This document shows positions 4,973 to 62,274 of a DNA stretch of 62,385 nt, one piece after another. This DNA is from Clostridia bacterium (GTDB lineage Bacteria > Bacillota > Clostridia > DUPQ01): contig JAWOHX010000103.1 of NCBI GenBank assembly GCA_046484975.1, forward strand, positions 1 through 62,385, written 5' to 3'. The number at the start of each line of letters is the position of its first letter. Within the stretch, counting starts at the first letter, position 1. Below the pieces are notes generated by a model. The model was not told where the DNA came from. It did no database searches and worked only from the letters and a program-made list of their open reading frames with translations. Made by a program: the position numbers and the translations under genes.

Positions 4973-5561
4973 ATGCTTGCGGATATTCACAAGGGCAGCC
5001 TTGCGGCTGATCATGAACCTGATGTTCAGGATCCGTTTCAAGGGAGCAAAGGATTTCCCGAAGGAGGGAGGGCTCATTGTCTGCGCCAACCACACCAGCC
5101 TCTTTGACATCCCCATCCTTGCTTTCATCAGCAAGAGATGGATTCATTACATGGCCAAGAAAGAGCTGTTTGAGAAATGGTTCGGCAGGAAGTTCGTCAC
5201 CGCCATGGGCGGGTTCCCAGTGGACCGGGGAAGAGGCGACATTGGCAGCATCAAGACAGCCTTGAGGCTTTTAAAGAGCGGGAAAATCCTGGGGCTCTTC
5301 CCCCAGGGGACAAGGGAGAAGAAGGGGGAGAGGCTTCCCGCCAGGAAAGGCGCCGCCATGCTTGCGGCCCTCTCCGGCTCGCCCATCGTCCCGGTGCTGA
5401 TTGAAGGGGAGTACAGGCTGTTTGGCAGGGTCACCGTCACTGTGGGCAAGCCCTATGACCTGGGGCTTCAGAAAGGCGGGAAATATCCGGCTGAGGTCAT
5501 CGAGCAGAAAAGCATGGAGATCATGGACCGGATCTATGCACTGAGAGGTGTGTACGCTTGA
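4962..5561 (+). CDS. plsC: 1-acyl-sn-glycerol-3-phosphate acyltransferase
   Basis: It has the HX4D motif (CANHTSLFD) and a FPQGTRE block. It overlaps the cmk 3' end by 11 nt. Confidence 0.85.
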   Translation: MENKCLRIFTRAALRLIMNLMFRIRFKGAKDFPKEGGLIVCANHTSLFDIPILAFISKRWIHYMAKKELFEKWFGRKFVTAMGGFPVDRGRGDIGSIKTALRLLKSGKILGLFPQGTREKKGERLPARKGAAMLAALSGSPIVPVLIEGEYRLFGRVTVTVGKPYDLGLQKGGKYPAEVIEQKSMEIMDRIYALRGVYA

Positions 5562-7657
5562 GGATTGTGATGGCGAAGAATGCCGGTTTTTGCATCGGGG
5601 TCCAAAAAGCCATGGAAAAAGCGGAGGAGATGCTGCGGGAGGAAGGCGCAAAATACAGCCTGGGGGAACTCATACACAACCCGCGGGTCACAGAGGCTTT
5701 CCGGGACCGGGGACTTCTGGTCGCAGAGGACATCAGGGATGTCCCGGATAAAAGCCTTCTCATCATCCGGGCCCACGGGGAAGGGCCTGATGCTGCCCGC
5801 ATGGCCAGGGAGAAGCAATTGAGAGTGTATGATGCCACCTGCTCATATGTGCACAATATCCAGAAACTCATCGCCGAGAAATTCAAACAGGGCTACCGAA
5901 TCATTCTTTTCGGCTACAAAACCCACCCTGAGGTCATCGGAATCAACGGATACTGTGAAAACAAGGCCGTTGTGATCGGAAATGTCTCCGAGGCCATGGC
6001 ATTCGTTCCTGACGGGCAGGATGTCTGCCTCATCGCCCAGACCACCATGGTGCAGGAGGAATATGACCTTATCCATGAAATATTGAAAAAAAGAATTGCA
6101 AACCTAGTTAAATTTGATACAATATGTACAGCGACCCGGAAAAGGCAGTCAGAAGCCGCTGAAATGGCCAAAACAGCGGATGTCATGCTGGTGGTGGGAG
6201 GCAAAAACAGTTCCAATACATGCAGGTTGTTTGAGATCTGCAGGGAGCATTGCAAGAACACATTCCTGATCGAAAACACCGGCGACTTGTCGCCGATAGA
6301 AATAAAGGATAATATGACAGTATGCATCACAGCAGGGGCCAGTACCCCGGACTGGGTTGTCAAGGAGGTAAAGGAAGCAATGGAAGAAAAAGAAAAACAA
6401 GGTGAGGTTTTTAATTTTGAGCAGGCATTAGAAGCATCCCTTGTTCCAGTGAAGAACGGAGATGTTGTCAAAGGCAGGATCATCAGCCTGAACAACAACG
6501 AAGTCTATGTGGACCTGGGTTTCAAGATCGACGGGACCATTCCGATCGAGGAGTTCGAGAAGGACAGTGAAGGAAACCCCATGGTCAAGGTCGGAGAATC
6601 CATCGAAGCCCTTGTGGTGAAAGTGAAAGAGAGCGAAGGGGTTGTCACCCTCTCTAAAAAGAGGGTGGATGACAGGAAGAAATTCGAGAAGATAGATGAA
6701 TTGTTCGAAACAGGGGAAGCTGCGAAAGTAACGGTCAAGGAAGCCGTTTCCGGCGGCCTTATCGTGGACGTCTACGGGATGGACGGGTTCATACCTGCAT
6801 CCCAGCTCAGCGACAGGTACGTGAGGAACCTGGACAAGTACGTGGGCAGGAAGATAAAGGCAAGGATCATCGAGAACAACCGCAAGAAAAGAAAACTCAT
6901 CCTGTCCCGCCGGGTCCTGATTGAAGAGGAAAACGAAAAACTGGAAAGGGAAGTCTGGAGCAACCTCGAGATCGGAAAGACGATTCCCGGGAAGGTGAAA
7001 AGCTTCACCAGCTTCGGCGCATTCGTGGATGTGGGTGGCATGGACGGACTGATCCATATCACGGAATTGTCCTGGAACAGGATCAAGCACCCCAGCGATG
7101 TGCTGGAGATCGGACAGGAGATCGAGGTCATCGTCAAGGACTTCAGCAAAGCGGACAAGAGGATATCCCTGGGATACAAGAAAGCAGAGGATGATGTCTG
7201 GTACAAGGCCGACGAGAAATACGCATCGGGCACGGTGGTGAAAGGGACGGTCGTCAGAATCCTGCCCTTTGGCGCCTTCGTCCAGATAGAGCCCGGTTTG
7301 GATGCCCTTGTCCATATCTCGCAGATTTCAACCAGGAGAATCAACACCCCGTCGGAAGTCCTTTCTGAAGGCATGGAGATTGAAATGGCCATCATCGACG
7401 TGGATATGGAAGCAAGGAAGATCAATGCCAGCATCAAGGCCGTCAAGCCCTACGACCCGGAATTCGTTGAGGAGCCCCCCGTTGAAATCAAAAGGCCCGC
7501 CAGAGCGCCTGAAGGGGAGAGAAAACCTTCCAGGCCGAAGGAGAAAAGGGAGCCGGAAAGACTTCCCGGCAGTTACTCCGAGAATTTCAGCAACACCATC
7601 GGCGACATACTCGGCAAGATCGACATCAAGGAGAAACCGGAGGAAGACAAAGAATAG
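5558..7657 (+). CDS. ispH: Bifunctional 4-hydroxy-3-methylbut-2-enyl diphosphate reductase (IspH/LytB) fused to 30S ribosomal protein S1
   Basis: The N-terminal region of about 280 aa (AKNAGFCIGV, IRAHGE, DATCSYV, VVGGKNSSNT) is IspH. It is followed without a stop by four S1 repeats (GDVVKGRI.., VSGGLIVDV.., GKVKSFTSFGAFVDVGG.., GTVVRILPFGAFVQI..) and a K/E/P-rich tail. Confidence 0.9.
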   Translation: MRIVMAKNAGFCIGVQKAMEKAEEMLREEGAKYSLGELIHNPRVTEAFRDRGLLVAEDIRDVPDKSLLIIRAHGEGPDAARMAREKQLRVYDATCSYVHNIQKLIAEKFKQGYRIILFGYKTHPEVIGINGYCENKAVVIGNVSEAMAFVPDGQDVCLIAQTTMVQEEYDLIHEILKKRIANLVKFDTICTATRKRQSEAAEMAKTADVMLVVGGKNSSNTCRLFEICREHCKNTFLIENTGDLSPIEIKDNMTVCITAGASTPDWVVKEVKEAMEEKEKQGEVFNFEQALEASLVPVKNGDVVKGRIISLNNNEVYVDLGFKIDGTIPIEEFEKDSEGNPMVKVGESIEALVVKVKESEGVVTLSKKRVDDRKKFEKIDELFETGEAAKVTVKEAVSGGLIVDVYGMDGFIPASQLSDRYVRNLDKYVGRKIKARIIENNRKKRKLILSRRVLIEEENEKLEREVWSNLEIGKTIPGKVKSFTSFGAFVDVGGMDGLIHITELSWNRIKHPSDVLEIGQEIEVIVKDFSKADKRISLGYKKAEDDVWYKADEKYASGTVVKGTVVRILPFGAFVQIEPGLDALVHISQISTRRINTPSEVLSEGMEIEMAIIDVDMEARKINASIKAVKPYDPEFVEEPPVEIKRPARAPEGERKPSRPKEKREPERLPGSYSENFSNTIGDILGKIDIKEKPEEDKE

Positions 7658-7712: not shown

Positions 7713-7943
7713 ATGATCACAATAAATGACATGAACAAAGAACAACTCCTGGAGTTGCTCGAGGCCAAAGACAATGAGATCGCCAGGCTGAAAGAGGAAG
7801 TCTCGATACTGGATGAAATCGCAAGGCAACTCTTCGGGAAGTTGAATCCGGCGGATGGAGAAGGTGAACATGAAGGCTGCTGTGCTGACAGGCATAAAGG
7901 AAATGGAGATCCGGGATGTTCCTGTTCCTGTGGCAAAGGATGA
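7713..7943 (+). CDS. Hypothetical small coiled-coil protein; its 3' part overlaps the next gene out of frame
   Basis: There is a good RBS (AGGAGAAAG, 4 nt before the ATG). The first ~47 aa, MITINDMNKEQLLELLEAKDNEIARLKEEVSILDEIARQLFGKL, are heptad-like. The tail (GCCADRHKGNGDPGCSCSCGKG) lies inside the dehydrogenase CDS in another frame. Confidence 0.3.
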   Translation: MITINDMNKEQLLELLEAKDNEIARLKEEVSILDEIARQLFGKLNPADGEGEHEGCCADRHKGNGDPGCSCSCGKG

Positions 7944-8880: not shown

Positions 8881-8967
8881 TGGTGCGAGAAGCGGGACTC
8901 GAACCCGCACGTACTTTCGTACACTAGAACCTGAATCTAGCGAGTCTGCCAATTCCACCATTCTCGC
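8881..8967 (-). tRNA. tRNA-Leu (anticodon CAG), class II with long variable arm, CCA encoded
   Basis: The reverse complement is GCGAGAATGGTGGAATTGGCAGACTCGCTAGATTCAGGTTCTAGTGTACGAAAGTACGTGCGGGTTCGAGTCCCGCTTCTCGCACCA. It shows a 7-bp acceptor stem, anticodon stem CTAGA/TCTAG with loop TTCAGGT, and a GTTCGAGTC T-loop. Confidence 0.9.
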
Positions 8968-12849: not shown

Positions 12850-12873
12850 TTTTTTAAAATAGAATATGTAGTA

Positions 12874-12975
12874 CCTTTAAACTGGTCCAGAGAGGCTTGA
12901 AAGGTTGAATAGAAGACGTTCTTTTATTTGGATATTTAAGTGCTTTCCGGTCATGGGAAGCACTTATATATATAC
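12874..12975 (+). promoter_or_regulatory. PyrR-binding attenuator (binding hairpin plus downstream terminator)
   Basis: The hairpin CCTTT..AAAGG (12874-12904) presents GGUCCAGAGAGGCU, a near-exact match to the PyrR loop consensus ARUCCAGAGAGGYU. An 11-bp terminator stem AAGTGCTTTCC/GGGAAGCACTT (12938-12965) follows, then an A/U-rich run. Confidence 0.75.
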
Positions 12976-12999
12976 AAATTTAACAGGGGGATATTGCAT

Positions 13000-14253
13000 A
13001 TGACAGAAAAAAGCAAGTTGGGCGGCAAGGAGTTCCTGCTCGGTTTCCAGCATCTCTTTGCCATGTTTGGGGCGACGGTCCTGGTTCCGGCACTGACAGG
13101 CCTGAATCCTTTGGTGGCCTTGTTCACCGCCGGTATCGGAACATTGATCTTCCACCTGGTCACCAAGGGGAAGGTGCCGGTTTTCCTGGGCTCGAGCTTT
13201 GCATTCATTGGCGGAATCGCCACCGTGACCGGAATGGGCACGGAAGCCGGGGTCACACCCGAAGGCATCGCAAAAGCCGGGGGAGGGATACTTTGCGCTG
13301 GTCTATTGTACCTTGTGCTTTCAGCCCTGGCATATTTTGTGGGCGTTGAAAGAATTAAAAGCTTTTTCCCGCCGGTGGTCACCGGACCCATCATCATGGT
13401 CATTGGCCTTTCGCTGGTCCCCGTCGCCATCTGGGGAGCAGAGGGCAACTGGCTGGTTGCCACCTTCACCGTTCTCGTCATTGTCGCGGTCATGCTGTTT
13501 ACGAAAGGTTTCTTCAAACTGGTCCCCATCCTGATTGGCATCGTGGCGGGGTACGTGTTGTGCGTCATACTGAAACTTATCGGCGGCCCGGACCTTGTGG
13601 ATCTGTCGGTGGTTGCCAATGCGGACTGGTTCAGCTTCAAACAGATAGCTGAAGGCACCTTCTTCTACCTGCCAAAATTTGACTGGGCGGCCATCACCCT
13701 GATTGCCCCCGTGGCCATCGTGACCTTTGTCGAGCACATGGGTGACATCACCACCAACGGAACCGTTGTGGGCAAGAACTTCCTGGTCGATCCCGGACTC
13801 CACAGGACCCTTCTCGGGGACGGGCTTGCCACCATGTTCGCAGGATTTTTTGGAGGCCCCGCCAACACCACCTATTCTGAAAACACCGGCGTGCTGGCCG
13901 TCACCAAGAACTACAATCCCGCCACACTTCGGATTGCCGCCATATTCGCCATCCTGCTGAGCATATTCGGAAAATTCGGCGCCATCATCAGCACCATCCC
14001 CGGACCTGTCATGGGAGGCATCAGCATCATCCTTTTCGGCATCATCGCCAGCGTCGGCCTGCGCACCGTTGCCGAGGCGGAGCTTGACTTCGCCCACTCC
14101 AGGAACCTCGTCATCGTCGCCCTGGTCCTGGGGCTTGGCATCGGCATCAGCTCCATCGGGGGGATTACCATCGGAAGCATCAACCTGTCGGGTCTCTTCA
14201 TCGCGGCCATTGTGGGTATCGTGTTCAACAAACTGCTACCCAAGGACATTTAA
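13000..14253 (+). CDS. pyrP: Uracil permease (NCS2 family)
   Basis: LLGFQHLFAMFGATVLVPALTGLNP...GIGTLIF..KGKVPVFLGSSFAFIGG closely parallels the UraA/PyrP N-terminus. The ATG at 13000 has an AGGGGGA RBS. A PyrR attenuator lies upstream. Confidence 0.9.
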   Translation: MTEKSKLGGKEFLLGFQHLFAMFGATVLVPALTGLNPLVALFTAGIGTLIFHLVTKGKVPVFLGSSFAFIGGIATVTGMGTEAGVTPEGIAKAGGGILCAGLLYLVLSALAYFVGVERIKSFFPPVVTGPIIMVIGLSLVPVAIWGAEGNWLVATFTVLVIVAVMLFTKGFFKLVPILIGIVAGYVLCVILKLIGGPDLVDLSVVANADWFSFKQIAEGTFFYLPKFDWAAITLIAPVAIVTFVEHMGDITTNGTVVGKNFLVDPGLHRTLLGDGLATMFAGFFGGPANTTYSENTGVLAVTKNYNPATLRIAAIFAILLSIFGKFGAIISTIPGPVMGGISIILFGIIASVGLRTVAEAELDFAHSRNLVIVALVLGLGIGISSIGGITIGSINLSGLFIAAIVGIVFNKLLPKDI

Positions 14254-27013: not shown

Positions 27014-27034
27014 TCATGTATGTCAATGAGAAAG

Positions 27035-27226
27035 TAAAGTAATCCGAGGGTGCCTTACAGAGAGTTGCCGGGTGGTGCAAGGCAACGGGCGCAGCGGATG
27101 AATTCCGCTTTTGAGACGAAGGCGATGAGCCTTCCCGTTTGGCCGGTTATCGCTGAAACAAGAGGGTATATGCCAATTTGGGTGGTACCGCGGAATTTCA
27201 TCCGTCCCATAGTGTGGGGCTTTTTT
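27035..27226 (+). promoter_or_regulatory. T-box riboswitch leader (seryl)
   Basis: It has an AGAGA box (about 27059), GGTGGTGCAA, and the T-box sequence AATTTGGGTGGTACCGCGG (27175-27193). A terminator GTCCCA/TGGGGC + TTTTTT lies at about 27204-27226. The candidate specifier is UCC (27104-27106), followed by G. Confidence 0.85.
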
Positions 27227-27245
27227 ATTGAAGGAGGATGATCAT

Positions 27246-28529
27246 ATGCTGGACATCAACAGGATCAGGGAGAACCCGGAGGAAATTGTCAGGAAATTGT
27301 CAAAAAGAAATCTTGCAGTGGACTTCACGGAGCTGCTGTCATGGGACAAGCAACGCAGGGAACTCATATTCCGCACGGAAAACCGCAAGTCGGAAAAAAA
27401 CATCATCTCATCCAGAATCCCCGCCTGGAAAAAGGAAGGCAGGGATGTCTCCTCATTGCTGGAGGATCTCAAGGCGACCGCAGACGGGATCCGGGAGGAC
27501 GAGGCCGCCATTGCGGAACTGGATAAAAAAATCCGGGGTTTCCTGGAGAATCTGCCCAATGTCCCGGCGGAGGACGTGGCTGCAGGGGACGCCTCCAGGA
27601 ACACGGTGGAAAGGGTCTTCGGGGAAAAACCCGTGTTCGCCTTCCCTGTGCTGGACCATGTGGCCCTCTGTGAAAACCTGGGACTGGTGGACTACCAGAG
27701 GGGCGTCAAGATCGGGGGCAACGGGTTCTGGCTCTATAGAGGGAAAGGGGCCATGATGGAGTGGGCCCTTCTCAACTATTTCATTGAAGAGCACCTGAAG
27801 GACGGATACGAGTTCATCCTTCCGCCCCATATCTTAAACTATGCGTGCGGATATACGGCGGGACAGTTTCCAAAATTCGAGGAGGATGTCTTCTGGCTCG
27901 AGGAAAACGAGGGGAAGGGATACCGGCAGTTCATCCTTCCCACGGCGGAGACCGCCCTGATCAATCTCCACAGGGACGAGATACTGGAGGAATCAGATCT
28001 GCCATGCAAATATTTCGCCTATACGCCCTGCTACCGCAAGGAAGCAGGCAGCTACAGGGCCGAGGAACGGGGAATGATCCGCGGCCACCAGTTCAACAAG
28101 GTGGAGATGTTCCAGTTTACAAAACCTGAGGACAGCGAATCCGCCCTGGAGGAATTGGTGGGAAAGGCGGAAGGGCTCATGCAGGGCCTGGGACTTCATT
28201 ACAGGGTCGCGAAACTTGCCGCCGGGGACTGTTCCCATGCCATGGGCAAGACATATGACATCGAGGTATGGATTCCCAGCATGGGAATTTACAAGGAAGT
28301 GAGCTCTGCATCCAATGCCTATGATTACCAGGCGAGGAGAGGCAACATCCGGTACAGGAGGAAAGAAGAAAAGAAAAATGATTTTGTGCACACATTGAAT
28401 GCATCCGGACTGGCCACAAGCAGGATCATCCCCGCCATCGTGGAGCAGTTCCAGAGAAAGGACGGGAGCGTTGCGGTTCCGTCCGTATTGAGAAAGTGGG
28501 TGGGTGACGATGTCATCAGCAATGGATAA
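27246..28529 (+). CDS. serS: Serine--tRNA ligase
   Basis: It begins MLDINRIRENPEE and has a coiled-coil arm and class II motifs (FRKEAGS-like YRKEAGSY, GSGLATSR-like ASGLATSR). There is a GAAGGAGG RBS. Confidence 0.95.
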   Translation: MLDINRIRENPEEIVRKLSKRNLAVDFTELLSWDKQRRELIFRTENRKSEKNIISSRIPAWKKEGRDVSSLLEDLKATADGIREDEAAIAELDKKIRGFLENLPNVPAEDVAAGDASRNTVERVFGEKPVFAFPVLDHVALCENLGLVDYQRGVKIGGNGFWLYRGKGAMMEWALLNYFIEEHLKDGYEFILPPHILNYACGYTAGQFPKFEEDVFWLEENEGKGYRQFILPTAETALINLHRDEILEESDLPCKYFAYTPCYRKEAGSYRAEERGMIRGHQFNKVEMFQFTKPEDSESALEELVGKAEGLMQGLGLHYRVAKLAAGDCSHAMGKTYDIEVWIPSMGIYKEVSSASNAYDYQARRGNIRYRRKEEKKNDFVHTLNASGLATSRIIPAIVEQFQRKDGSVAVPSVLRKWVGDDVISNG

Positions 28530-31503: not shown

Positions 31504-31592
31504 TTCCATGCAAAGCGGTTTATACCGGCGGATGAAACTTATTTCATTTTCCAATCGTTTAATTGGTATGAATAAAATAGGCGGTGAACAAA

Positions 31593-32816
31593 ATGAAAAA
31601 AACAATGATTGTCATCACAGCGTTGATTCTCTCGGCTGTCATGGCAGCCTGCAGTACCGGGGGGGTTCCCCAGACCATGAAGACCACGTATGCAGCAGAA
31701 AAAAGCAATGATGTGATTTCCGGGAACATTGATTTCGCCTTCGACTTTTTCAAAGAACTCAACATCGCGGACAGGGACGAAAACATCTTCGTGTCCCCCT
31801 TCAGCATCTCATCCGCCCTGTCCATGCTATATAACGGCGCAGCGGGCAGGACCAGGACGGACATGGCGCAGGCTTTGCGTTATGCCGGAATCAGCGACGA
31901 GGAGTTCAACAAGGGGCACAGGTATCTGTTGGACAGGCTGGAAAGCCTGGACGGGAAAGTCACCATCGACATCAACAATTCGGTATGGATCCGGGAAAAC
32001 TTCATCGTGAACCCAGACTTCATCCAGCTGAGCAAGAACACTTTCAGCGCCGAGGTGAGAAGCCTGGATTTCAGCAGGATGGATGCCACCCGGATCATCA
32101 ATGAGTGGGTGGAGGAAAAGACAAGAGGCAAGATCGACCAGATCATTGACCGGATTGACCAGGACGTGGTGATGTATCTCATCAACACAATCTATTTCCT
32201 CGGTGACTGGACATACAGTTTCGACAAGGACAAGACCGCGGACTATGCCTTTAAGAATTACAGCGGCGCTGTCACTGATGTGGACATGATGTACCTCAAA
32301 ACCACGTTGCGCTACATGGATAAGGACGGGTTCCGTGCGGTCAGGCTTCCCTACGGGGAAGGAAAGACTTCCATGGTCATCCTTCTGCCTGATGAAGGCA
32401 CGGACATCAACGAGTTCATCAAGAGCCTGGACAGGAAGAAATGGGAGGAAATCCTTTTGGGGATGCAAAGCCATGAGGATGTCCTGGTGCGGCTCCCGAA
32501 ATTCAAAATGGAGTATGGCATCCGCAACATCAGCAGTGAACTCATCAGCATGGGCATGGGATCCGCATTCTCCAATGCTGATTTCAGCAGAATTGCAAAC
32601 AACCTGGAAATCAGCCGTGTGCTCCACAAGGCCGTCATCGAGGTGGACGAGAAGGGGACGGAGGCCGCGGCAGTAACGGCGGTGGAGATCCGGCTCACCT
32701 CCTTTATCCCTGACGAAAAGCCCAGGGAACTCATCGCAGACAGGCCCTTCATCTACATCATCACCGACGATGAGGACCAGAGTATCCTTTTCATGGGAAA
32801 AATGCTACAGCCGTAA
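31593..32816 (+). CDS. Serpin-family serine protease inhibitor, lipoprotein
   Basis: It has a lipobox (LSAVMAAC), NIFVSPFSISSALSMLYNGAAGRT, an inhibitory-type hinge (EKGTEAAAVTAV), and a RPFIYII C-terminal motif. Confidence 0.85.
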   Translation: MKKTMIVITALILSAVMAACSTGGVPQTMKTTYAAEKSNDVISGNIDFAFDFFKELNIADRDENIFVSPFSISSALSMLYNGAAGRTRTDMAQALRYAGISDEEFNKGHRYLLDRLESLDGKVTIDINNSVWIRENFIVNPDFIQLSKNTFSAEVRSLDFSRMDATRIINEWVEEKTRGKIDQIIDRIDQDVVMYLINTIYFLGDWTYSFDKDKTADYAFKNYSGAVTDVDMMYLKTTLRYMDKDGFRAVRLPYGEGKTSMVILLPDEGTDINEFIKSLDRKKWEEILLGMQSHEDVLVRLPKFKMEYGIRNISSELISMGMGSAFSNADFSRIANNLEISRVLHKAVIEVDEKGTEAAAVTAVEIRLTSFIPDEKPRELIADRPFIYIITDDEDQSILFMGKMLQP

Positions 32817-36239: not shown

Positions 36240-36416
36240 ATGGCAGAAGTCAGGATAAAAGACAACGAAACCCTTGAAAGCGCACTGAAAAGATTCAAGA
36301 GGCAGTGTGCCAAGGCTGGGGTACTTGCTGAGGTCAGGAAAAGGGAGCATTACGAGAAGCCCAGCGTCAAAAGGAAAAAGAAATCCGAAGCCGCAAGAAA
36401 AAGAAAAAAGAAGTAA
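36240..36416 (+). CDS. rpsU: 30S ribosomal protein S21 (58 aa; below the ORF-track length cut-off)
   Basis: My manual translation is [58 protein letters not shown], which is the canonical S21 pattern. There is a GGAGGGGAG RBS upstream. Confidence 0.9.
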
Positions 36417-36426
36417 AAAAGAATCC

Positions 36427-36458
36427 AAAAAAAAGCCTGATCCACATCAGGCTTTTTC
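36427..36458. terminator. Bidirectional rho-independent terminator between rpsU (+) and purA (-)
   Basis: The stem AGCCTGAT (36434-36441) / ATCAGGCT (36446-36453) is flanked by an A-run on the 5' side and a T-run on the 3' side. Confidence 0.8.
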
Positions 36459-37724
36459 TTATACCACAATCAGGGCTTCACGGCCGGGTCCCACGGACAC
36501 ATGGGTGATGGGGCAACCGCAGAGTTCCTCGATTCTTTTCAGATAAGCGACGGCCGCCCCGGGCAACCCGGACATCTCCCGGATGGCCGTGATGTCCTCC
36601 TCCCATCCCGGAAGGGTCTCATAGACAGGCTGGGCGGTCTCCAGTGTGCAGTTAAGGGGAAAATGCTCCGTGAGCCCATCCCCGGTGCGGTAGGCGGTGC
36701 AGATCTTCAGCTCCTTTTGTCCGCTGAGCACATCCAGGCAGGTGACGGTCATCTGCGTTGCGGCCTGCAGCCTGCACCCGTAGCGGGTGGCGACGGCGTC
36801 GAAGTGGCCGATCCGTCTGGGCCTTCCTGTTTTTGCCCCGTATTCCTTGCCTTTTTCCCGTATCGCATGTGCCTGCTCCCCGAACATTTCCGTGGTGAAG
36901 GGGCCTTCCCCCACACAGGTGGAATAGGCTTTGGTGATGCCGACGATTCCGGTGATTTCCCTGGGGGAGACGGGGATGGAGGCACAGGCGTAGCCGCTCA
37001 GGGTGGAGGAGGAAGTCGTGTAGGGATAGATGCCATGGGTGATGTCACGCAAAGCCCCGAGCTGGGCTTCGGCTATGATGGTTTTGCCGTTTTTCAACAG
37101 TTCCTCCACCATGGGTTGGATGTTCCGGATGAAGGGCTTGAGCAACTCCGCTTCCCGGATCAGTTTCTCATATATTTCCTCCGGGTCGATTTTTTCAGCG
37201 CCGTACCCTTTTTCGATGAGAATGTTCGCATAGGCCACGGATTCATGGACATGCCGCCTCAAATAATCCGGATGGAAGAGCTCTCCGGCCTGGATGCCCT
37301 TCTTCAGGTATTTGAACCCGTAGGTGGGAGCGATGCCGCTCATGGTGGAACCATATTTTTTGTCTTTGAGCCGACTCTCCTCCAAACGTTCCAGGATGTA
37401 TGCATAAGGAAGAATCAGGATGCACCGGTCGGAGATGTAAAGGTTGTCCAGGGCGAGTCCCTTGGAACGAACTTCCTCCAGTTCCCTGATGAAGGATTCC
37501 GGGCTCAACACCGACCCGCTGGCGATGATGTTGACAACATGGGGATAACAGACCCCGGAAGGGAAATTGTGGAAAGCAAACTTCCCATGCTCGTTCACAA
37601 CGGTGTGGCCGGCATTGTCGCCTCCCTGGTAGCGGATGACACAATGGGCATCCCGGGCGAAGTAATCCACCATCCTGCCCTTTCCTTCATCCCCCCAATT
37701 CAATCCAACAATGGATATCACCAT
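36459..37724 (-). CDS. purA: Adenylosuccinate synthase
   Basis: It has NWGDEGKGRMVDY, QGGDNAGHTV and GTTGRGIGP-like TKAYSTCVGEGPF, and ends with KTGRPRR. Confidence 0.95.
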   Translation of the reverse strand: MVISIVGLNWGDEGKGRMVDYFARDAHCVIRYQGGDNAGHTVVNEHGKFAFHNFPSGVCYPHVVNIIASGSVLSPESFIRELEEVRSKGLALDNLYISDRCILILPYAYILERLEESRLKDKKYGSTMSGIAPTYGFKYLKKGIQAGELFHPDYLRRHVHESVAYANILIEKGYGAEKIDPEEIYEKLIREAELLKPFIRNIQPMVEELLKNGKTIIAEAQLGALRDITHGIYPYTTSSSTLSGYACASIPVSPREITGIVGITKAYSTCVGEGPFTTEMFGEQAHAIREKGKEYGAKTGRPRRIGHFDAVATRYGCRLQAATQMTVTCLDVLSGQKELKICTAYRTGDGLTEHFPLNCTLETAQPVYETLPGWEEDITAIREMSGLPGAAVAYLKRIEELCGCPITHVSVGPGREALIVV

Positions 37725-37832
37725 GACAAACCCTCCCTTTCATTCCATGCTTGCAACGCCATTATATTACACCGCATGTCATAAGTATAATTAATATTAA
37801 TTATATTCCTCATTAGCTGAAATTATGAACTC

Positions 37833-55516: not shown

Positions 55517-56056
55517 ATGAGGAAAATCAGATCGTTGTTGATCGCGTTGAATTTCATCATCACGACAGTTTTCAGTTTTTTCGGCATGTACCTGATGGTG
55601 AATGTATATTATGCCAGGGAAGTGGGGAACATCCTGTTTGACAGCAGAATCCTCTCTTCGGTGAGGATCATCCCGTTCCTGTGCTTTTTGATTGTCATCG
55701 TGTCGAACGTCCTGTTCCTGTTCACCTTCAAGCGGAAGGACAGGACAAAGGAAGCTGTCCGCATCTCCAATCCGGCAGGCGTCATCAGCATATCCGCCCA
55801 ATCCATTGAGAGCCTTGCCAAGCTGGAAGCCCAGCAGATGGAGAATATTTCAGACATCAGGACAAGGATCATCAGCACCGACAACAAAGCCACCATCGAG
55901 GTGATGGTAAAGGTTCCCCCGGTCATCTCCATACCGGAGGTGTCTGCTGCCCTGCAGAGCCGGATCAAGAACAAGATCATCGAGACGACCGGCATCGAGA
56001 TTGCAAGCGTCAGGATCATCGTGGACGGTATCCTGGAGCCCGTGAGGCACCAATGA
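55517..56056 (+). CDS. AmaP-like membrane anchor for Asp23
   Basis: It has two N-terminal TM helices followed by an Asp23-like soluble part (ISISAQSIESLA...ATIEVMVKV...VRIIVDGI), and it sits directly after asp23. Confidence 0.65.
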   Translation: MRKIRSLLIALNFIITTVFSFFGMYLMVNVYYAREVGNILFDSRILSSVRIIPFLCFLIVIVSNVLFLFTFKRKDRTKEAVRISNPAGVISISAQSIESLAKLEAQQMENISDIRTRIISTDNKATIEVMVKVPPVISIPEVSAALQSRIKNKIIETTGIEIASVRIIVDGILEPVRHQ

Positions 56057-56445
56057 GCAGAAAAAAAGCCAGGGAGACGGCATTCAAGCTCCTGTACCAG
56101 ACCCAGATCAACAAGGACGACATTCTGGAGCAGTTGCTGACATATTTTGAGGAGAATCCCACGGATGATGCCTCCAGGGAATACATCCAGGAGGTTGTCA
56201 CCGGTGTGAACACGCATCTGGAGGAGATCGACGCCAGCATCCGGAAATTCATCGCAGCCTCATGGAAGATTGAACGGATCTCCAAAATTGATTTGTCCAT
56301 CCTGCGGCTGGGGTATTATGAGATTGTTTACCGGGACGACATCCCGAAGGGCGTCGCCATCAACGAGGCCGTTGAGATCGCAAAGGAATATGGGTCGGAC
56401 CAGTCGGGAAGGTTTGTCAACGGGGTATTGGCAAATATTTCATAG
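56053..56445 (+). CDS. nusB: Transcription antitermination factor NusB
   Basis: It has RKKARETAFKLLYQTQI, LRLGYYEI, AINEAVEIAKEYG and FVNGVL. Confidence 0.93.
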   Translation: MSRKKARETAFKLLYQTQINKDDILEQLLTYFEENPTDDASREYIQEVVTGVNTHLEEIDASIRKFIAASWKIERISKIDLSILRLGYYEIVYRDDIPKGVAINEAVEIAKEYGSDQSGRFVNGVLANIS

Positions 56446-56457
56446 CAGGGAAAAGCA

Positions 56458-57675
56458 ATGACCGAGATTTATACCGTATCACAGATCAATGCATATTTTA
56501 AAACACTTGTGGCATCCGATGAGATCTTGTCGGATGTCGGCATAAAGGGGGAAATCTCCAATTTCAGGCACCATCATTCCGGGCACATGTATTTTACGCT
56601 CAAGGATGAACGGGCAGTGGTCCGGTGCGTGATGTTTTCCTATGCGGCCATGGATCTCGAGTTTGCTCCGAGGGACGGTATGCTGGTTGTGGCCAGGGGA
56701 TACATGTCCGTGTATGAGAGGGACGGCCAGTTTCAGCTGGTCGTCAAAGACATGGCGGAATACGGGCAGGGGGACCTCTTTGCCATGTTCCAGCAGCTTA
56801 AAGCAAGGCTCGCGGAAGAAGGACTGTTCCGGGAATCCCATAAAAAGGCCCTTCCCTTTCTTCCTTTGTCCATCGGTGTTGTGACCTCCCGGACAGGGGC
56901 GGTCATCAATGACATCCGCAATGTCCTGGACAGGCGTTTTTATAACCACAGGCTGATCCTGTATCCCGCCAGCGTACAGGGGAAAGGCGCGGAAAAGGAG
57001 ATCATCAAAGGCCTGGACTATTTCAACCGTACCGGAAGCGTGGACGTCATCATACTGGGAAGGGGAGGGGGATCCCTGGAGGACCTTTGGCCCTTCAATG
57101 AAGAAAGCCTTGCCCGTGCCATATACCGTTCCGGCATCCCCGTGGTGTCTGCGGTGGGCCATGAGACCGATTACACCATATCCGATTTTGTGGCCGATCT
57201 TCGGGCACCTACGCCTTCTGCTGCGGCAGAGCTGGTGATGCCTGAGAAATCCGTGCTTTCAACAACCATCCGGAGCCAGTCGTCAAGGCTTTCCAACGCC
57301 ATGCAGGCGCTGGTCCGGGACAGGGAAAAAAGAATCGAAGGAATCAGGAACCGGCCCGTGTTCAAAAGGCCGCTGGAATATGTGCTGCTCCTTCAGATGA
57401 ATCTGGATTTCATTGCTGAGCGCTTCAGGAAGTCCATGCAGCGGATGGCCGAGGGAAAACAGGAAAAGCTGTCAAGGAACGGGGCCCTGTTGGAAGCGCT
57501 GGGCCCTGCCGGGGTCCTGAACCGGGGATACAGCATCACATACAAGGCTGACGGCATCCTCAGGAGCATCCGGGATGTGGAGGAAGGGGACATCGTGGTG
57601 ACGGAGCTGAAAGACGGGAAATTCGCCGGGAAGGTGACCGGCAAGGAGGACAGGAATGAAGAATCTGACATTTGA
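56458..57675 (+). CDS. xseA: Exodeoxyribonuclease VII large subunit
   Basis: It has VSQINAYFKTL, GEISNFRHHHSGHMYFTLKD, IGVVTSRTGAVINDI and GHETDYTISDFVADLRAPTPSAAAE. Confidence 0.95.
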   Translation: MTEIYTVSQINAYFKTLVASDEILSDVGIKGEISNFRHHHSGHMYFTLKDERAVVRCVMFSYAAMDLEFAPRDGMLVVARGYMSVYERDGQFQLVVKDMAEYGQGDLFAMFQQLKARLAEEGLFRESHKKALPFLPLSIGVVTSRTGAVINDIRNVLDRRFYNHRLILYPASVQGKGAEKEIIKGLDYFNRTGSVDVIILGRGGGSLEDLWPFNEESLARAIYRSGIPVVSAVGHETDYTISDFVADLRAPTPSAAAELVMPEKSVLSTTIRSQSSRLSNAMQALVRDREKRIEGIRNRPVFKRPLEYVLLLQMNLDFIAERFRKSMQRMAEGKQEKLSRNGALLEALGPAGVLNRGYSITYKADGILRSIRDVEEGDIVVTELKDGKFAGKVTGKEDRNEESDI

Positions 57676-57871
57676 CGGGATGATGAAGGAACTCGAGGAG
57701 ATCGTGGCAATGCTGGAAGCCGGGGATGTTCCCCTGGAGAAGGCCATGGAAAAATACAAGGAAGGCGCTTTGCTGATCAGCCGGATGGATGAAATCCTCC
57801 AGAAGGCGAAGAAAGAGATCATCACCGTGGGACCGGATGAGTCCTTGGAAAAAGACCATGAACCTGTCTGA
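57656..57871 (+). CDS. xseB: Exodeoxyribonuclease VII small subunit
   Basis: FDGMMKELEEIVAMLEAGDVPLEKAMEKYKEGALL is the canonical XseB pattern. It overlaps xseA by 20 nt. Confidence 0.92.
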   Translation: MKNLTFDGMMKELEEIVAMLEAGDVPLEKAMEKYKEGALLISRMDEILQKAKKEIITVGPDESLEKDHEPV

Positions 57872-58736
57872 TTTTCATTGCAGGCTGACTGCATGCAGGG
57901 AAATGGTGGATGAGGCGCTGATGAAGACCCTGGACGGGTTTTCGGGCTGCCCTCCGGCACTGAAGGAAGCCATGCGCTACAGCATCTGTGCAGGAGGAAA
58001 AAGGGTCAGGCCCATGTTGTTGATTCTTACATATGAGGCATCAGGAAAGACGGACCTGGATGGGGTCATGCCTTTTGCCTGCGCGCTGGAGATGATCCAC
58101 ACCTATTCCCTGATCCATGACGACCTTCCAGCAATGGACAATGACGACTACAGGAGAGGCATCCCCACAAGCCACAAAGTGCATGGGGAAGCCCTTGCCA
58201 TATTGGCGGGAGATGCTCTTCTAAACGGTGCATTTGAGGTCATGCTTGATCATGCAACCACGGAGCAGGCCATCCGGGCGGCTTCCATCATTGCCAGGGC
58301 ATCGGGGGCAGGAGGGATGATCGGCGGCCAGGTGTATGACCTGGAAGGAACAAGGGACGAGGCATCCCTGATGCAGATGCATGCCATGAAAACGGGAAAA
58401 CTGATTGAAGCCGCCGTTCTTGCGGGGGGATGCCTGTCTAGTGCGAAGCCCGGGACCATGAAAAAACTTCAGGAATATGCCGTGCACATCGGCATCGCTT
58501 TTCAGATCAGGGATGACATCCTGGATGTCACCTCCAGCAGGCAGTCACTGGGGAAAGATCCGGGAAGCGACGAAAAAAACGCCAAAATGACGTATCCGGT
58601 CCTGTTCGGAATCAAGGGTTCCCTGGAACGACAGGCAATGCACACCCGCAGCGCGGTGGATGCACTGGTGGGACTGCCCAAGGCATATGGCATCCTGGCG
58701 CAATTCGCGGACATGCTGGAGGAAAGAGAGGGCTGA
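57858..58736 (+). CDS. ispA: Polyprenyl (farnesyl/geranyl) diphosphate synthase
   Basis: It has GGKRVRP, the first DDxxD (LIHDDLPAMDNDDYRRG) and the second (FQIRDDILD). The ATG at 57858 overlaps xseB by 14 nt. Confidence 0.9.
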   Translation: MNLSDFHCRLTACREMVDEALMKTLDGFSGCPPALKEAMRYSICAGGKRVRPMLLILTYEASGKTDLDGVMPFACALEMIHTYSLIHDDLPAMDNDDYRRGIPTSHKVHGEALAILAGDALLNGAFEVMLDHATTEQAIRAASIIARASGAGGMIGGQVYDLEGTRDEASLMQMHAMKTGKLIEAAVLAGGCLSSAKPGTMKKLQEYAVHIGIAFQIRDDILDVTSSRQSLGKDPGSDEKNAKMTYPVLFGIKGSLERQAMHTRSAVDALVGLPKAYGILAQFADMLEEREG

Positions 58737-58737
58737 T

Positions 58738-59184
58738 ATGACATTCATACAAATATTCGCTGAGTTCAAGTTCATCATCATCCCCTGCATCGCCTGGGTG
58801 ACAGCCCAGTTCATCAAATTCGCCATCCATCTCTTCAAAACGAGGAGAATTGACTTCACCAAATTCACCGGGTCGGGGGGGATGCCCAGTTCCCATACCG
58901 CCCTGACCGTCTGCCTGGCCACCCTCATCGGTTTTTCAGAAGGGCTCAGGTCCCCCTTGTTCGGCCTCGCATTGATTTTCGCCCTTGTGGTGATGTACGA
59001 CGCAGCCGGGGTCAGGAGGGCAAGCGGAAAGCAGGCCAAGGTGCTCAACAGGATGCTGTATCACCAGAAAGGGGACGATTACCATCTGGAGGAGGTGCTC
59101 AAGGAGCTCATCGGACATACCCCGGTGGAAGTCATCACCGGCGCGGCGCTCGGTATCCTGATTGCCTATCTCCTGATGCCATAA
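58738..59184 (+). CDS. Divergent PAP2 (DUF212, acid-phosphatase/haloperoxidase-related) membrane protein
   Basis: It has FIKFAIHLFKTRRIDF..GSGGMPSSHTALT and VVMYDAAGVRRASGKQA, which are family signatures. The ATG lies 1 nt after the ispA stop. Confidence 0.8.
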   Translation: MTFIQIFAEFKFIIIPCIAWVTAQFIKFAIHLFKTRRIDFTKFTGSGGMPSSHTALTVCLATLIGFSEGLRSPLFGLALIFALVVMYDAAGVRRASGKQAKVLNRMLYHQKGDDYHLEEVLKELIGHTPVEVITGAALGILIAYLLMP

Positions 59185-59292: not shown

Positions 59293-59301
59293 TGCTATAA
59301 T
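59293..59301 (+). promoter_or_regulatory. Extended -10 promoter element upstream of the large ncRNA
   Basis: TGcTATAAT (59293-59301). The -35 is weak (TTCCTA, 59273-59278). Confidence 0.45.
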
Positions 59302-59304
59302 GAC

Positions 59305-59925
59305 AATCCTAATTGCAGATTGAAAATGAAATAAGGGTGGCGCAGTATTCTAGTCAGTGCTGCCGGCATCGAAGACGGGCCTAAAAATCCGTTAAAGAGC
59401 ACATCGATGAAGTTCCTTGCATTGGCTTGTTACGCCCAGTAGTGGGCTGGTGCCGGGAGTTAAGATTTAGGGGCAGCCTGCAATGGCATGCAGGCGGCGA
59501 CCCCTTTATCGTGGAGATTCTGTTGTCAGGGAGAGGCTGCTTGTCAGCAAGGACGTGGCACGGAAGAAAACCTGTTCAGGGAAGCCTGTTCAGTGTAGCT
59601 TGCCTTGAGTGGAGTTGAGCGGATTACGGATCATGTCAATGGGCAACGGCCGTTGCCATAAAGATAATTGCTGCATGAAACCAACTTTGCAAAAGAGGAT
59701 AGGTGCCGGAAAAGCTGTTGAGGAAATCTCCTAGACTGTTCTTTGGAGATGCATCAAGCATTGCGGTGTAGACTAAGTGGCAATCAGGCAATATTACCGG
59801 TAACGGAGTAACGTAGGCTTTAATGGGAAACCACTGTTCCGGCGACGGGCAGCAGCGTATGGGGAAATCCGGCCTGACCTGAAGTCGCAAAATTTACTTG
59901 GTGTATCGCCACTCTTATTTTTTTT
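59305..59925 (+). ncRNA. ole: OLE (ornate, large, extremophilic) RNA candidate
   Basis: There is a 758-nt gap (59185-59942) with no credible ORF. A long-range 10-bp closing helix pairs AAGGGTGGCG (59333-59342) with CGCCACTCTT (59907-59916). There are many local hairpins and GNRA loops. The position ispA-(PAP2)-RNA-4TM protein-dxs, downstream of nusB-xseA-xseB, is the canonical OLE context. Confidence 0.7.
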
Positions 59926-59942
59926 ATTCGGAGGGTTCATCA

Positions 59943-60542
59943 TTGGGCGTGTCAAAAAATAAAAACAGGACTTCAAAAAAAGACCATGGGAAAAAATGGA
60001 TCTTATTTTTGTTCATCTCCTCTTTCTTCATAGCTGCCTTCCTCATACTGATATCGACCAAAATCATGGAATCCCTGAACATCTATCTGGCAGTCGTTGT
60101 CATCCTCATCATCATATTCATCGGAATCCTGTTTGACACCATCGGCATGGCCGTGGCAGTGGCGGATATCTCCGTGTTCCATTCCAAGGCCTCCCACAAG
60201 CTCTTTGGCGCGCAAAAGGCCATCTGGCTCATCAGGCATGTGGACAAGGTCACCAGCATCTGCAACGATGTGGTGGGCGACATATGCGGGATCATCAGCG
60301 GTGCGGCAAGCACCATGGTCGTCTTTTATGTCGCAGGAACATTTGACAACAGCGGACGCTCCTGGGCAAATCTTGTGATAAGCGGGGCGGTTGCATCCCT
60401 GACCATCGGCGGCAAGGCCATCGGAAAAAGAATTGCTTTGAATAAAAAGAATGATATAGTATATAAAACAGGGATCATCCTGCAAGTTTTTTCCGGGAGA
60501 GATAGACCGAATGCGAAAGACAGCAAAAAGATTGATAGATGA
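59943..60542 (+). CDS. oapA: OapA-like (OLE-associated) four-TM membrane protein
   Basis: There are four predicted helices (WILFLFISSFFIAAFLILIS; IYLAVVVILIIIFIGILFDTIGMAVAVA; VVGDICGIISGAASTMVVFYVA; LVISGAVASLTIGGKAIG). It lies immediately 3' of the ncRNA and 5' of dxs. The TTG at 59943 lies 7 nt after GGAGGG; the track start at 59898 lies inside the RNA. Confidence 0.6.
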   Translation: MGVSKNKNRTSKKDHGKKWILFLFISSFFIAAFLILISTKIMESLNIYLAVVVILIIIFIGILFDTIGMAVAVADISVFHSKASHKLFGAQKAIWLIRHVDKVTSICNDVVGDICGIISGAASTMVVFYVAGTFDNSGRSWANLVISGAVASLTIGGKAIGKRIALNKKNDIVYKTGIILQVFSGRDRPNAKDSKKIDR

Positions 60543-62274
60543 GATCAACCTCCCCGATGGGATCAAGTCCCTGAACCATGAACAACTGGATAAACTGTGC
60601 GTAGAAATCAGGGGGATCATCATCGATGCCATCTCCCAAAACGGAGGGCACCTGTCCTCCAACCTGGGCATCGTGGAGCTGACCGTCGCCATGCACAGGG
60701 TTTTTGATTTCAAGGAGGACGTCGTTGTCTGGGACGTGGGGCACCAGTCCTACGCCCATAAGATACTCACCGGCAGGAAAGACCTGTTCCATACCGTCAG
60801 AAGATACAAGGGGATTTCCGGCTTTCCCAAAAGAGAGGAAAGCGCATATGATTTCTTCAATACGGGACACAGCAGCACCGCCATCTCCGCGGCTTACGGG
60901 TATGCGAAAGCCAAGACCATGCGCAAGGAAAAGGGAACCTGTATCGCGGTGGTGGGGGACGGGGCCATGGCGGGAGGCATGTCCTTCGAGGCTCTCAACG
61001 ATGCAGGCTCCTACCAGGACGACCTGCTGGTCATTCTCAATGACAACGAGATGTCCATTTCAAAAAACGTCGGAAGCCTTCCAAGATATCTGGAAAGGAT
61101 CCGGGAGAAAAGCATTTACGCAAAAACGAATAAAAGAGTGAAGAGCCTGGTGGAACGGATCCCATGGATAGGGAAATGGCTCCGTGATTCCATCCATCGG
61201 TTGAAAGGCGCCATCAAATACTATTACACCCGGGAAGCCCTCTTTGAGGAGTTCGGCTTCAGGTATTATGGCCCTGTGGACGGCCACGATGTCAAAGCCC
61301 TTGTGAAAATCCTGGAAAGCATTAAGATCGTTCCCGGGCCTAAGCTGCTGCATGTCATCACAAAAAAAGGAAAGGGTTATGAAAAGGCCGAATGCCAGCC
61401 CCAGCAATACCACGGCGTAGGAAAGTTCGATGTGCTTAACGGGGTGGACAGCAACGGCATCGGCAAGACATTTTCCGAAGTAACCGGGGAGTTGCTGACC
61501 GGACATGCGGACCTTGATCCGGATGTGGTGGTGGTCTGTCCGGCCATGGCCATCGGGGCAGGCCTTACACCCTTCTGTGAGAAGTATCCGGAGCGGTTCT
61601 TCGACGTGGGCATCGCGGAACAGCATGCAGTGACCTTTGCGGCGGGAATGGCCTGCCAGTCCCTGAAACCCGTCGTGGTGATGTATTCTTCCTTCATGCA
61701 GAGGGCATATGACCAGATGCTGCATGATGTGTGCCTGATGAACCTGCATGTGGTGTTCTGCGTTGACCGGGCGGGGATTGTACCCTGCGACGGAGAGACC
61801 CACCAGGGCATCTATGACCTGGCCTATCTTGGGCACATGCCCAACCTGGAGATTTTTGCGCCTTCCAACCGGAAGGATTATGAGGCCTTCCTCAGCCACG
61901 GGCTTTACAAAGCAAAGGGACCTGTCGCCATCCGTTATCCCAAGGAAAGCTGCCGTGAGGAGCAATGGGAGGAACTGGATCCTTTCAAAGCCAGGATCTT
62001 ACGAAACGGGGAACACATCACGCTGATATCCTATGGCCGCATCCTTCATGAATGCATGAAGGCGGCTTTACTTCTGGAGGAGCAGGGGATACGGTGCGCT
62101 GTCATTGACCTAAGGTGCCTCAAGCCATTGGATCTTGCGACGATCGGGGAAATTGCACCGGAAACAACCCATATGATCTGCTTTGAGGACAGCATCCGGG
62201 AATCCGGATGCGGGGAGAAGATCGGATATTATCTGAAAGAGCATCATCCCCATGTAGCAGACATGGGATGTTAA
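60511..62274 (+). CDS. dxs: 1-deoxy-D-xylulose-5-phosphate synthase, apparently 3'-truncated at a sequence junction
   Basis: It has GGHLSSNLGIVELTVAMH, GHQSYAHKILTGR, VVGDGAMAGGMSFEALN (TPP motif) and DVGIAEQHAVTFAAG. It ends ..HHPHVADMGC*, where full-length Dxs continues with the (I/M)G(L/I)PDxFxxHG... block of about 30-35 aa. Confidence 0.9.
   Translation: MRKTAKRLIDEINLPDGIKSLNHEQLDKLCVEIRGIIIDAISQNGGHLSSNLGIVELTVAMHRVFDFKEDVVVWDVGHQSYAHKILTGRKDLFHTVRRYKGISGFPKREESAYDFFNTGHSSTAISAAYGYAKAKTMRKEKGTCIAVVGDGAMAGGMSFEALNDAGSYQDDLLVILNDNEMSISKNVGSLPRYLERIREKSIYAKTNKRVKSLVERIPWIGKWLRDSIHRLKGAIKYYYTREALFEEFGFRYYGPVDGHDVKALVKILESIKIVPGPKLLHVITKKGKGYEKAECQPQQYHGVGKFDVLNGVDSNGIGKTFSEVTGELLTGHADLDPDVVVVCPAMAIGAGLTPFCEKYPERFFDVGIAEQHAVTFAAGMACQSLKPVVVMYSSFMQRAYDQMLHDVCLMNLHVVFCVDRAGIVPCDGETHQGIYDLAYLGHMPNLEIFAPSNRKDYEAFLSHGLYKAKGPVAIRYPKESCREEQWEELDPFKARILRNGEHITLISYGRILHECMKAALLLEEQGIRCAVIDLRCLKPLDLATIGEIAPETTHMICFEDSIRESGCGEKIGYYLKEHHPHVADMGC

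Follow-up and report, generated by a model that had tools for sequence, protein, structure and literature searches.

The question raised by this locus is what occupies a gap of 758 nucleotides (nt) between a DUF212 gene and a gene of the type labelled hypothetical or "CorB-like" in a Clostridia bacterium. The DNA analysed is a stretch of 62,385 nt (GenBank assembly GCA_046484975.1, contig JAWOHX010000103.1, positions 1 to 62,385 of the forward strand), the whole of which is referred to below as the window. An earlier note, made by reading the sequence only, had seen no credible open reading frame (ORF) between 59185 and 59942, and this holds, the only ORFs there being of 41–63 amino acids (aa) on the forward strand and 84 aa on the reverse strand; it had proposed OLE RNA instead, a membrane-associated stress-response RNA of roughly 600 nt known from Gram-positive anaerobes and extremophiles. 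Our analysis indicates that the region is almost certainly an ole gene, encoding an OLE (ornate, large, extremophilic) RNA with the general ribonucleoprotein role of that family. The feature is a correct but ordinary find, namely a further member of an already described RNA class in its usual context and with minor local peculiarities; what is new is the host only, a lineage of Clostridia for which no close relative was found in the databases searched.

Family match and covariation

We scanned the whole window against every Rfam family at gathering thresholds and obtained four matches: OLE, a T-box leader, a borderline PyrR site and a tRNA. The OLE match (RF01071) scores 443.9 bits (E = 4.7e-127; gathering score 50) and spans model positions 1–616 without truncation. 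The covariance model search that the earlier note had named as a check was thus run and returned the full model; this end-to-end match bears out the proposed identity, and it excludes the note's fallback, a large RNA of a new class at this locus. The gene and its structured core are located as follows:

59321..59928, forward strand: ole gene (OLE RNA), full-length RF01071 match
59333–59916, forward strand: structured core from one P1 strand to the other, 584 nt

The Rfam consensus structure was projected onto the window, and pairs were counted where both sides carried a base. Canonical pairs were found at 132 of 153 consensus positions (86%), the non-canonical ones clustering in two regions that are variable across the family, namely the distal half of P7 and the mid part of P9. 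For comparison, at least 120 OLE loci were collected from one-genome-per-species contigs by a pattern of conserved 5′ nucleotides, from hosts as diverse as Bacillaceae, Alicyclobacillus, Clostridium, Alkaliphilus and many metagenome-assembled genomes. The nearest of these genes shares at most about 72% sequence identity with the window RNA. Even so, the window largely keeps the nearly invariant positions that make up about a quarter of OLE RNA: at the 211 alignment columns that are ≥95% conserved in 106 other OLE RNAs, the window is identical in 205, with about 42 of the conserved positions already fixed by the retrieval pattern used to collect the loci. The six departures (all forward strand; base in the window, with that of the others in brackets) are:

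59398: A (G)
59454: C (T)
59518: T (C)
59600: T (C)
59759: C (G)
59765: G (A)

The window and the 106 loci with a full-length copy (107 sequences) were aligned with MAFFT, blind to structure, and the consensus structure was slid along this alignment to provide controls for pairing. With the consensus structure plus P1 in register, 84.7% of cells were paired, compared with 39–45% in the slid controls, and the covariation score was 0.455, compared with 0.09–0.14. Changes on both sides were seen in 130 of the 162 pairs.

Anatomy of the RNA

The earlier note had drawn a long-range helix between AAGGGTGGCG (59333–59342) and CGCCACTCTT (59907–59916). This helix is present, covaries and corresponds to P1 of the published OLE consensus (PMC12265935, PMC3413148); only its innermost pair, G59342–C59907, is contested, as it competes with the closing pair of P12 in the Rfam structure. 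A second long-range stem, P3, closes the 5′ domain. Both are left unpaired by the Rfam structure line.

59333..59341, forward strand: P1 5′ strand AAGGGUGGC, pairing with 59908–59916
59908..59916, forward strand: P1 3′ strand GCCACUCUU, assigned by covariation
59355..59370, forward strand: P3 5′ strand, consisting of CAGU, internal-loop GCUG and CCGGCAUC; pairing across the 107 sequences
59702..59717, forward strand: P3 3′ strand, consisting of GGUGCCGG, AAAA and GCUG; pairing across the 107 sequences

P1 comprises 9 base pairs (bp) in the window, and eight of these nine have changed on both sides across the family. The inner 5 bp are paired in 97% of cells, with four of the five changed on both sides (at one of them, for example, U-A occurs 63 times, C-G 23 times and U-G 11 times), while the outer 4 bp are paired in 84.7% and all four covary. 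P3 joins 59355–59358 with 59714–59717 and 59363–59370 with 59702–59709 (4 + 8 bp); its 12 pairs are paired at 93.4% over the 107 sequences, compared with 39–58% when slid, and nine of them have changed on both sides. It is this stem that would pass through the membrane in published models.

Enclosed by P3 are the helices P4 to P9, all of which could be located in the window:

59374..59393, forward strand: P4 hairpin with A-rich loop CCUAAAAAUC; 6/6 pairs canonical, 98.8% paired in the family
59413..59459, forward strand: P5/P5.1 stem with the conserved loop GCCCA at 59434–59438; 20/20 pairs canonical, 96.5% paired in the family, 13 pairs changed on both sides
59464..59510, forward strand: P6/P6.1 with loop AAUGGCAU; from the covariance model alignment and helices 6 and 7 of the MAFFT alignment
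59518..59565, forward strand: P7, a variable stem; 11/17 pairs canonical
59572..59593, forward strand: P8, CUG-UU-CAGG-GAAG-CCUG-UU-CAG; from the covariance model alignment
59602..59699, forward strand: P9, a long stem with the palindromic loop GGCC at 59648–59651; from the covariance model alignment

All motifs of the dimerisation loops, CCUAAAAAUC, GCCCA, AAUGGCAU and GGCC, lie at the expected loops, where they would be predicted to act as they do in cryo-EM structures of other OLE RNAs: the A-rich P4 loop forms an A-A dimer bridge (PMC12265935, PMC12286853), the P6.1 loop AUGGCAU kisses the P5.1 loop GCCCA in the RNA dimer, and the palindromic P9 loop is a kissing-loop dimer bridge (both PMC12265935). 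Also present are the conserved strands CGAUGAAG (59404–59411, flanking P5) and CGUGGAGA, the predicted strands of the OapC-binding k-turn at the foot of P5 (J4a/5 with J6/7 or J5/6; PMC9723947, PMC12286853).

Of the smaller hairpins singled out beforehand in this domain, GGGG..GCCUGCA/UGCAGGC..CCCC coincides with consensus P6/P6.1 and GGCAAC-GGCC-GUUGCC with the tip of P9. The direct repeat CCUGUUCAG also exists, and its copies are the two strands of the short P8, with a coordinate off by one, the first CCTGTTCAG copy lying at 59571–59579. By comparison, the hairpin GCCCA/UGGGC (59434–59447) can be drawn in the sequence and is not part of the family structure. It is pairable in 96% of the family, but its bases are invariant and it conflicts with the covarying P5.1, whose loop is GCCCA; since both strands are invariant and show no covariation, the 96% pairability does not count as support for it. 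The complementarity is an observation in its own right: in 96% of the 107 OLE RNAs (alignment columns 120–133), the invariant GCCCA can pair with an invariant UGGG(Y) on the 3′ strand of its own stem, making an alternative local hairpin possible almost everywhere, which may simply follow from two separately constrained motifs.

The remainder of the RNA folds back towards P1 in a multi-helix 3′ domain:

59720..59747, forward strand: P10 hairpin GAG-GAAAU-CUC, conserved strand CUAGACUGU and vestigial P11; helices 18 and 19 of the MAFFT alignment
59748..59907, forward strand: 3′ multi-helix domain P12 to P15; helices 20–26, 91–99.5% paired, with many two-sided changes
59748–59758 with 59897–59907, forward strand: P12; 11/11 pairs canonical
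59791–59811, forward strand: P13, predicted OapB site, CCG-GUAA-CGG; GUAA tetraloop and single bulged A59796
59842–59845, forward strand: P14.1 GCGA tetraloop, from the sequence

Binding of OapB needs the P13 hairpin with a GNRA tetraloop and a single bulged stem nucleotide (PMC7936274). In the window, the bulged A59796 sits three pairs below the GUAA tetraloop, and the CCG-GUAA-CGG hairpin picked out in the earlier note is the tip of consensus P13. Two other proposed hairpins of this domain occur in the sequence without belonging to the family structure. AUCUCC/GGAGAU lies at 59726–59731/59745–59750, one position away from where it had been placed; there it is 55.6% paired, and its covariation does not exceed that of shuffles; the outer pair of UGG-GAAA-CCA is kept in only 14 of the 107 sequences (13%), leaving two invariant G-C pairs.

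Promoter, neighbouring genes and host

The elements at either end of the transcribed region, and the gene that follows it, are:

59293..59301, forward strand: extended −10 element TGCTATAAT, from the sequence
59918..59925, forward strand: T8 run directly after P1, from the sequence
59943..60542, forward strand: oapA, 199 aa; TTG start, 6 nt after a GGAGGG ribosome-binding site at 59931–59936

The extended −10 element TGcTATAAT noted earlier at 59293–59301 is present and stands at a family-typical place, with no good −35 box upstream of it; we infer a transcription start near 59308–59310. Among the OLE loci listed, 78 of 116 (about two thirds) carry TGNTANNAT at a distance of 30–49 nt before the conserved GCAGUAU anchor, the window copy being at −49, and recurrence of a six-base motif in a 20-nt interval at this frequency is not due to chance. 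In Halalkalibacterium (Bacillus) halodurans, a promoter just upstream of ole has been shown by experiment, with expression raised more than 100-fold; OLE RNA of that species persists with a half-life of about 3 h, its 5′ ends map near P1, and some of it is made on a longer transcript with neighbouring genes (PMC3413148). By analogy, the promoter is presumably active in the Clostridia host as well. A dedicated promoter directly before P1 seems to be family-wide across very diverse Bacillota, the experimental record being confined to B. halodurans.

At the 3′ end, the run described as T9-rich in the earlier note (ATTTTTTTTATT) does follow the long-range helix, with eight Ts and not nine. It may act as a partial terminator or as a site of pausing. 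A role as terminator throughout the family was rejected, a comparable tail being found in only 26 of 105 loci listed, and a small scanner-found hairpin at 59899–59911 was rejected as it conflicts with P12 and P1. No strong hairpin terminator was found between ole and oapA, whose start lies 15 nt past the Rfam match. The short gap and the lack of a strong terminator make co-transcription of ole with oapA likely.

The product of the downstream gene shares 38% identity over 188 aa (E = 7e-41) with that of the gene following ole in Halalkalibacter wakoensis. It carries the OapA signature DxxxD, which separates OapA from CNNM domains (PMC11332333), as DVVGD at residues 109–113, aligned to DVIGD of the H. 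wakoensis reference. Pfam and NCBIfam searches of this protein gave no useful match, and it was therefore identified by its homology to OapA genes that occupy this position. More than 7400 homologues were found, several of them labelled CorB-like or matching the CNNM family PF01595; the closest other homologue in a database of 5.8 billion proteins is 56% identical. OapA proteins have four transmembrane helices; for the window protein, a Kyte-Doolittle scan revealed strong hydrophobic segments at residues 20–38, 45–63 and 110–132, and a weaker stretch at about 141–160 that stays below the threshold. Like known OapA proteins, the window OapA is about 200 aa long, hydrophobic, equipped with DxxxD and encoded directly after ole, and like all of them it is without the CBS and CorC domains of MpfA/CorB.

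The other genes around ole, identified with Pfam/NCBIfam unless noted, are as follows:

56053–56445, forward strand: nusB
56458–57675, forward strand: xseA
57656–57871, forward strand: xseB
within 57789–58736, forward strand: ispA (farnesyl diphosphate synthase)
within 58660–59184, forward strand: DUF212 divergent PAP2 gene
60511..62274, forward strand: dxs (1-deoxy-D-xylulose-5-phosphate synthase), Pfam DXP_synthase_N, E = 3.3e-115; overlaps the end of oapA

Two Asp23-family genes are also found upstream of ole on the same strand. The gene order is thus nusB-xseA-xseB-ispA-DUF212-ole-oapA-dxs, which agrees with the predicted ispA/dxs locus (after nusB/xseA/xseB and before oapA/dxs) except that a DUF212 gene stands between ispA and ole. 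Across the 120 loci listed, IspA is encoded upstream of ole in 103, XseA in 84 and NusB in 63, and an OapA homologue downstream in 96 and Dxs in 80. A DUF212 gene lies directly before ole in 16 of the 120, mostly of Clostridia type, and is therefore a recurring arrangement; in 12 of those 16 it ends about 90–100 nt before the OLE anchor. The gap of 758 nt between the DUF212 gene and oapA being ole, it should be annotated as such, and the downstream hypothetical or "CorB-like" gene as oapA. As a side observation, the DUF212 product is a divergent PAP2 phosphatase-like protein, so that a lipid-phosphate-phosphatase-like membrane protein is encoded beside isoprenoid genes and a membrane RNA, and a functional link is conceivable.

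The sequence matches of alanyl-tRNA synthetase and OapA place the host in the Clostridia, probably near Acetivibrionales, which fits the Bacillota range of OLE. The best match of the synthetase is 59% identical, again in the database of 5.8 billion proteins, and its labelled matches, like the best OapA homologues, come from Clostridia or Acetivibrionales metagenome-assembled genomes. An exact look-up of the XseA sequence returned no record. Gene content also fits Clostridia (an IspH-S1 fusion, a miaB-mutS-mutL-miaA-hfq run and lexA). The fusion, a 699-aa protein encoded at 5558–7657, joins IspH (LytB) to four S1 RNA-binding domains, and is a second isoprenoid-pathway gene in the window, joined to ribosomal-protein-S1-like repeats.

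Elsewhere in the window, the T-box leader (27017–27212, 115.3 bits) lies directly upstream of the seryl-tRNA synthetase gene (27228–28529). The PyrR binding-site match at 12870–12973 barely exceeds its gathering score (54.4 versus 54) and stands upstream of a xanthine/uracil permease gene, slightly overlapping that gene's longest ORF (12940–14253), the true start codon of which is probably further downstream than 12940. A lone tRNA-Leu(CAG) is encoded on the reverse strand at 8881–8967, between alcohol dehydrogenase and Mur ligase genes. A full-length serpin gene is present at 31584–32816 (Pfam Serpin, E = 7.7e-113); serpins are uncommon in bacteria. No Pfam match was obtained for the ORFs at 36501–37784 (427 aa), 3048–3761 on the reverse strand (237 aa), 36307–36546 (79 aa) and 7713–7943 (76 aa), the last two of which may not be genes.

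Alternative readings and proposed role

Compared with the full-length OLE type (Fernando and Breaker 2024; H. halodurans, Clostridium acetobutylicum, C. botulinum), the window RNA shares the full model match, a similar length and the same invariant nucleotides; it likewise has helices P1 and P3–P14, the dimerisation loops, the OapB-type site of P13 and the P14.1 GCGA tetraloop, with a promoter element just upstream, oapA directly downstream and the ispA/dxs neighbourhood around it. It differs from the reference in a short P8, an altered distal P7, the GCUG/AAAA loop of P3, the six substitutions and the interposed DUF212 gene. The short P8 is reminiscent of OLE variant 1, in which P7, P8 and P9 are shortened and the OapB site at the P13 tip is often lost, variant 2 having no P7 or P8 at all (Fernando and Breaker 2024). 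Membership of either variant is ruled out by a P7 and a P9 of typical span (58 and 94 nt, compared with family medians of 59 and 96) and by the intact GNRA site of P13.

Several results speak against a regular OLE RNA and have to be set against the match. The span of P8 is 26 nt, compared with a family median of 37, or about the 3rd percentile. Only the basal 10–11 pairs of P7 fit the Rfam consensus and the distal half does not, in a region that aligns poorly across the family as a whole (44% paired on the MAFFT alignment). P3 is interrupted by a 4×4 internal loop (59359–59362 and 59710–59713), a site at which a close relative has about three further pairs (CUG/CAG), judged by eye. The six substitutions fall at positions that are otherwise ≥95% conserved. 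The minimum free energy of 59333–59916 is −204.6 kcal/mol (z = −1.5 versus shuffles), which is not above controls; thermodynamic stability does not set this RNA apart, and the evidence for its OLE identity is therefore comparative. Finally, neither oapB (ybzG, KOW-motif) nor oapC (ybxF, L7Ae family) was found in a Pfam survey of the genes predicted in the 62-kb window, as is expected of genes that are not linked to ole.

These local departures would be the traces of decay if the locus were a non-functional remnant of an OLE gene, a reading we regard as very unlikely. The match is to the full model at 444 bits, and many of the 86% of consensus pairs that are canonical are kept through compensatory changes relative to other species; the adjacent oapA is intact and carries its signature motif, the promoter element is in place, and functional variants are known in which P7 and P8 differ or are missing (Fernando and Breaker 2024). 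The short P8 and the few substitutions are also the sole departures that an OLE-like class merely occupying the OLE locus could point to, and we found no support for it; with the OLE model passed by almost 400 bits and the invariant nucleotides of the family shared, we consider such a class practically out of the question.

The proximity of oapA, with its own ribosome-binding site and no strong hairpin terminator before it, together with the longer transcripts known from B. halodurans (PMC3413148), would suit a stretch that is only a long structured 5′ leader regulating oapA-dxs in cis and not a separate functional RNA. Such a reading is hard to reconcile with experiments on the family, in which OLE RNA proved abundant and stable, with a half-life of about 3 h, as well as protein-bound and held at the membrane, or with the retention of 205 of 211 conserved positions and of every known protein and dimer contact, far beyond what a leader needs; we give this explanation very little credence. 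As for small proteins, ORFs of 63 aa (forward) and 84 aa (reverse) do exist, but variation over the 107 sequences tracks base-pair covariation and not codon structure, and these ORFs cut across conserved RNA helices and are without protein-family evidence, so that a coding role is extremely improbable.

Taking the region as ole, a role can be outlined from what is known of the family. OLE RNA is abundant and stable, dimerises, is held at the membrane by OapA and bound by OapB and OapC; cells need it to withstand alcohols, cold, an excess of Mg2+ and poor carbon sources. By analogy with the H. halodurans and Clostridium OLE RNAs, the window RNA is probably made as an abundant, stable transcript. 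It would fold into two domains, one of P3–P9 and one of P1/P2/P10–P15, and form a homodimer through loop contacts, made by the A-rich loop of P4, by GCCCA and AUGGCAU, and by the palindrome GGCC at the tip of P9. A dimer of OapA would hold it at the cell membrane, while OapB would bind the P13 GNRA hairpin and OapC the k-turn beside P5, and the complex would help the cell to cope with the same conditions, the alcohols being short-chain ones.

As the most likely mechanism we tentatively propose, again from the family, that the RNA dimer may serve as scaffold and regulator of an OapA ion-handling module. OapA resembles the CNNM domain of the MpfA/CorB Mg2+ transporters, and the occurrence of MpfA across genomes is anticorrelated with that of OLE (PMC11332333); it is this kinship and anticorrelation that lead us to favour such a role, in which the RNA would link divalent-ion handling at the membrane to the signals of its bound proteins rather than catalyse a reaction. 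Against a transport-regulating step stands the view of the OLE research groups, who favour a ribozyme or a master-regulator ("bTOR") role and call the biochemical function unknown; in papers up to 2026 the biochemical step is still unknown. Other large, highly structured non-coding RNAs share this position: GOLLD, ROOL and the raiA motif are likewise of unknown biochemical function, and GOLLD, ROOL and OLE all homo-oligomerise in cryo-EM (PMC12286853). GOLLD and ROOL form cages, whereas OLE is a membrane-bound dimer, and none of the three has sequence or structure similarity to the window RNA.

Few bacterial non-coding RNAs of unknown biochemical function are as large or as well conserved as OLE, and covariation analyses of the family gain a divergent sequence from an unsampled Clostridia lineage. 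P1 and P3, absent from the Rfam structure line, are confirmed on an alignment that was not structure-guided, and an extended −10 element is found at a nearly fixed distance from ole in about two thirds of the loci sampled. Recent cryo-EM work suggests that OLE may span the membrane, a picture that one more standard member leaves unchanged. It is conceivable, though we think it improbable, that the short P8, the unpaired 4×4 loop of P3 and the six substitutions make this locus a natural variant that is informative about function; should these changes alter the way in which the RNA and OapA are seated in the membrane, comparison with this locus would be useful for testing the transmembrane model.

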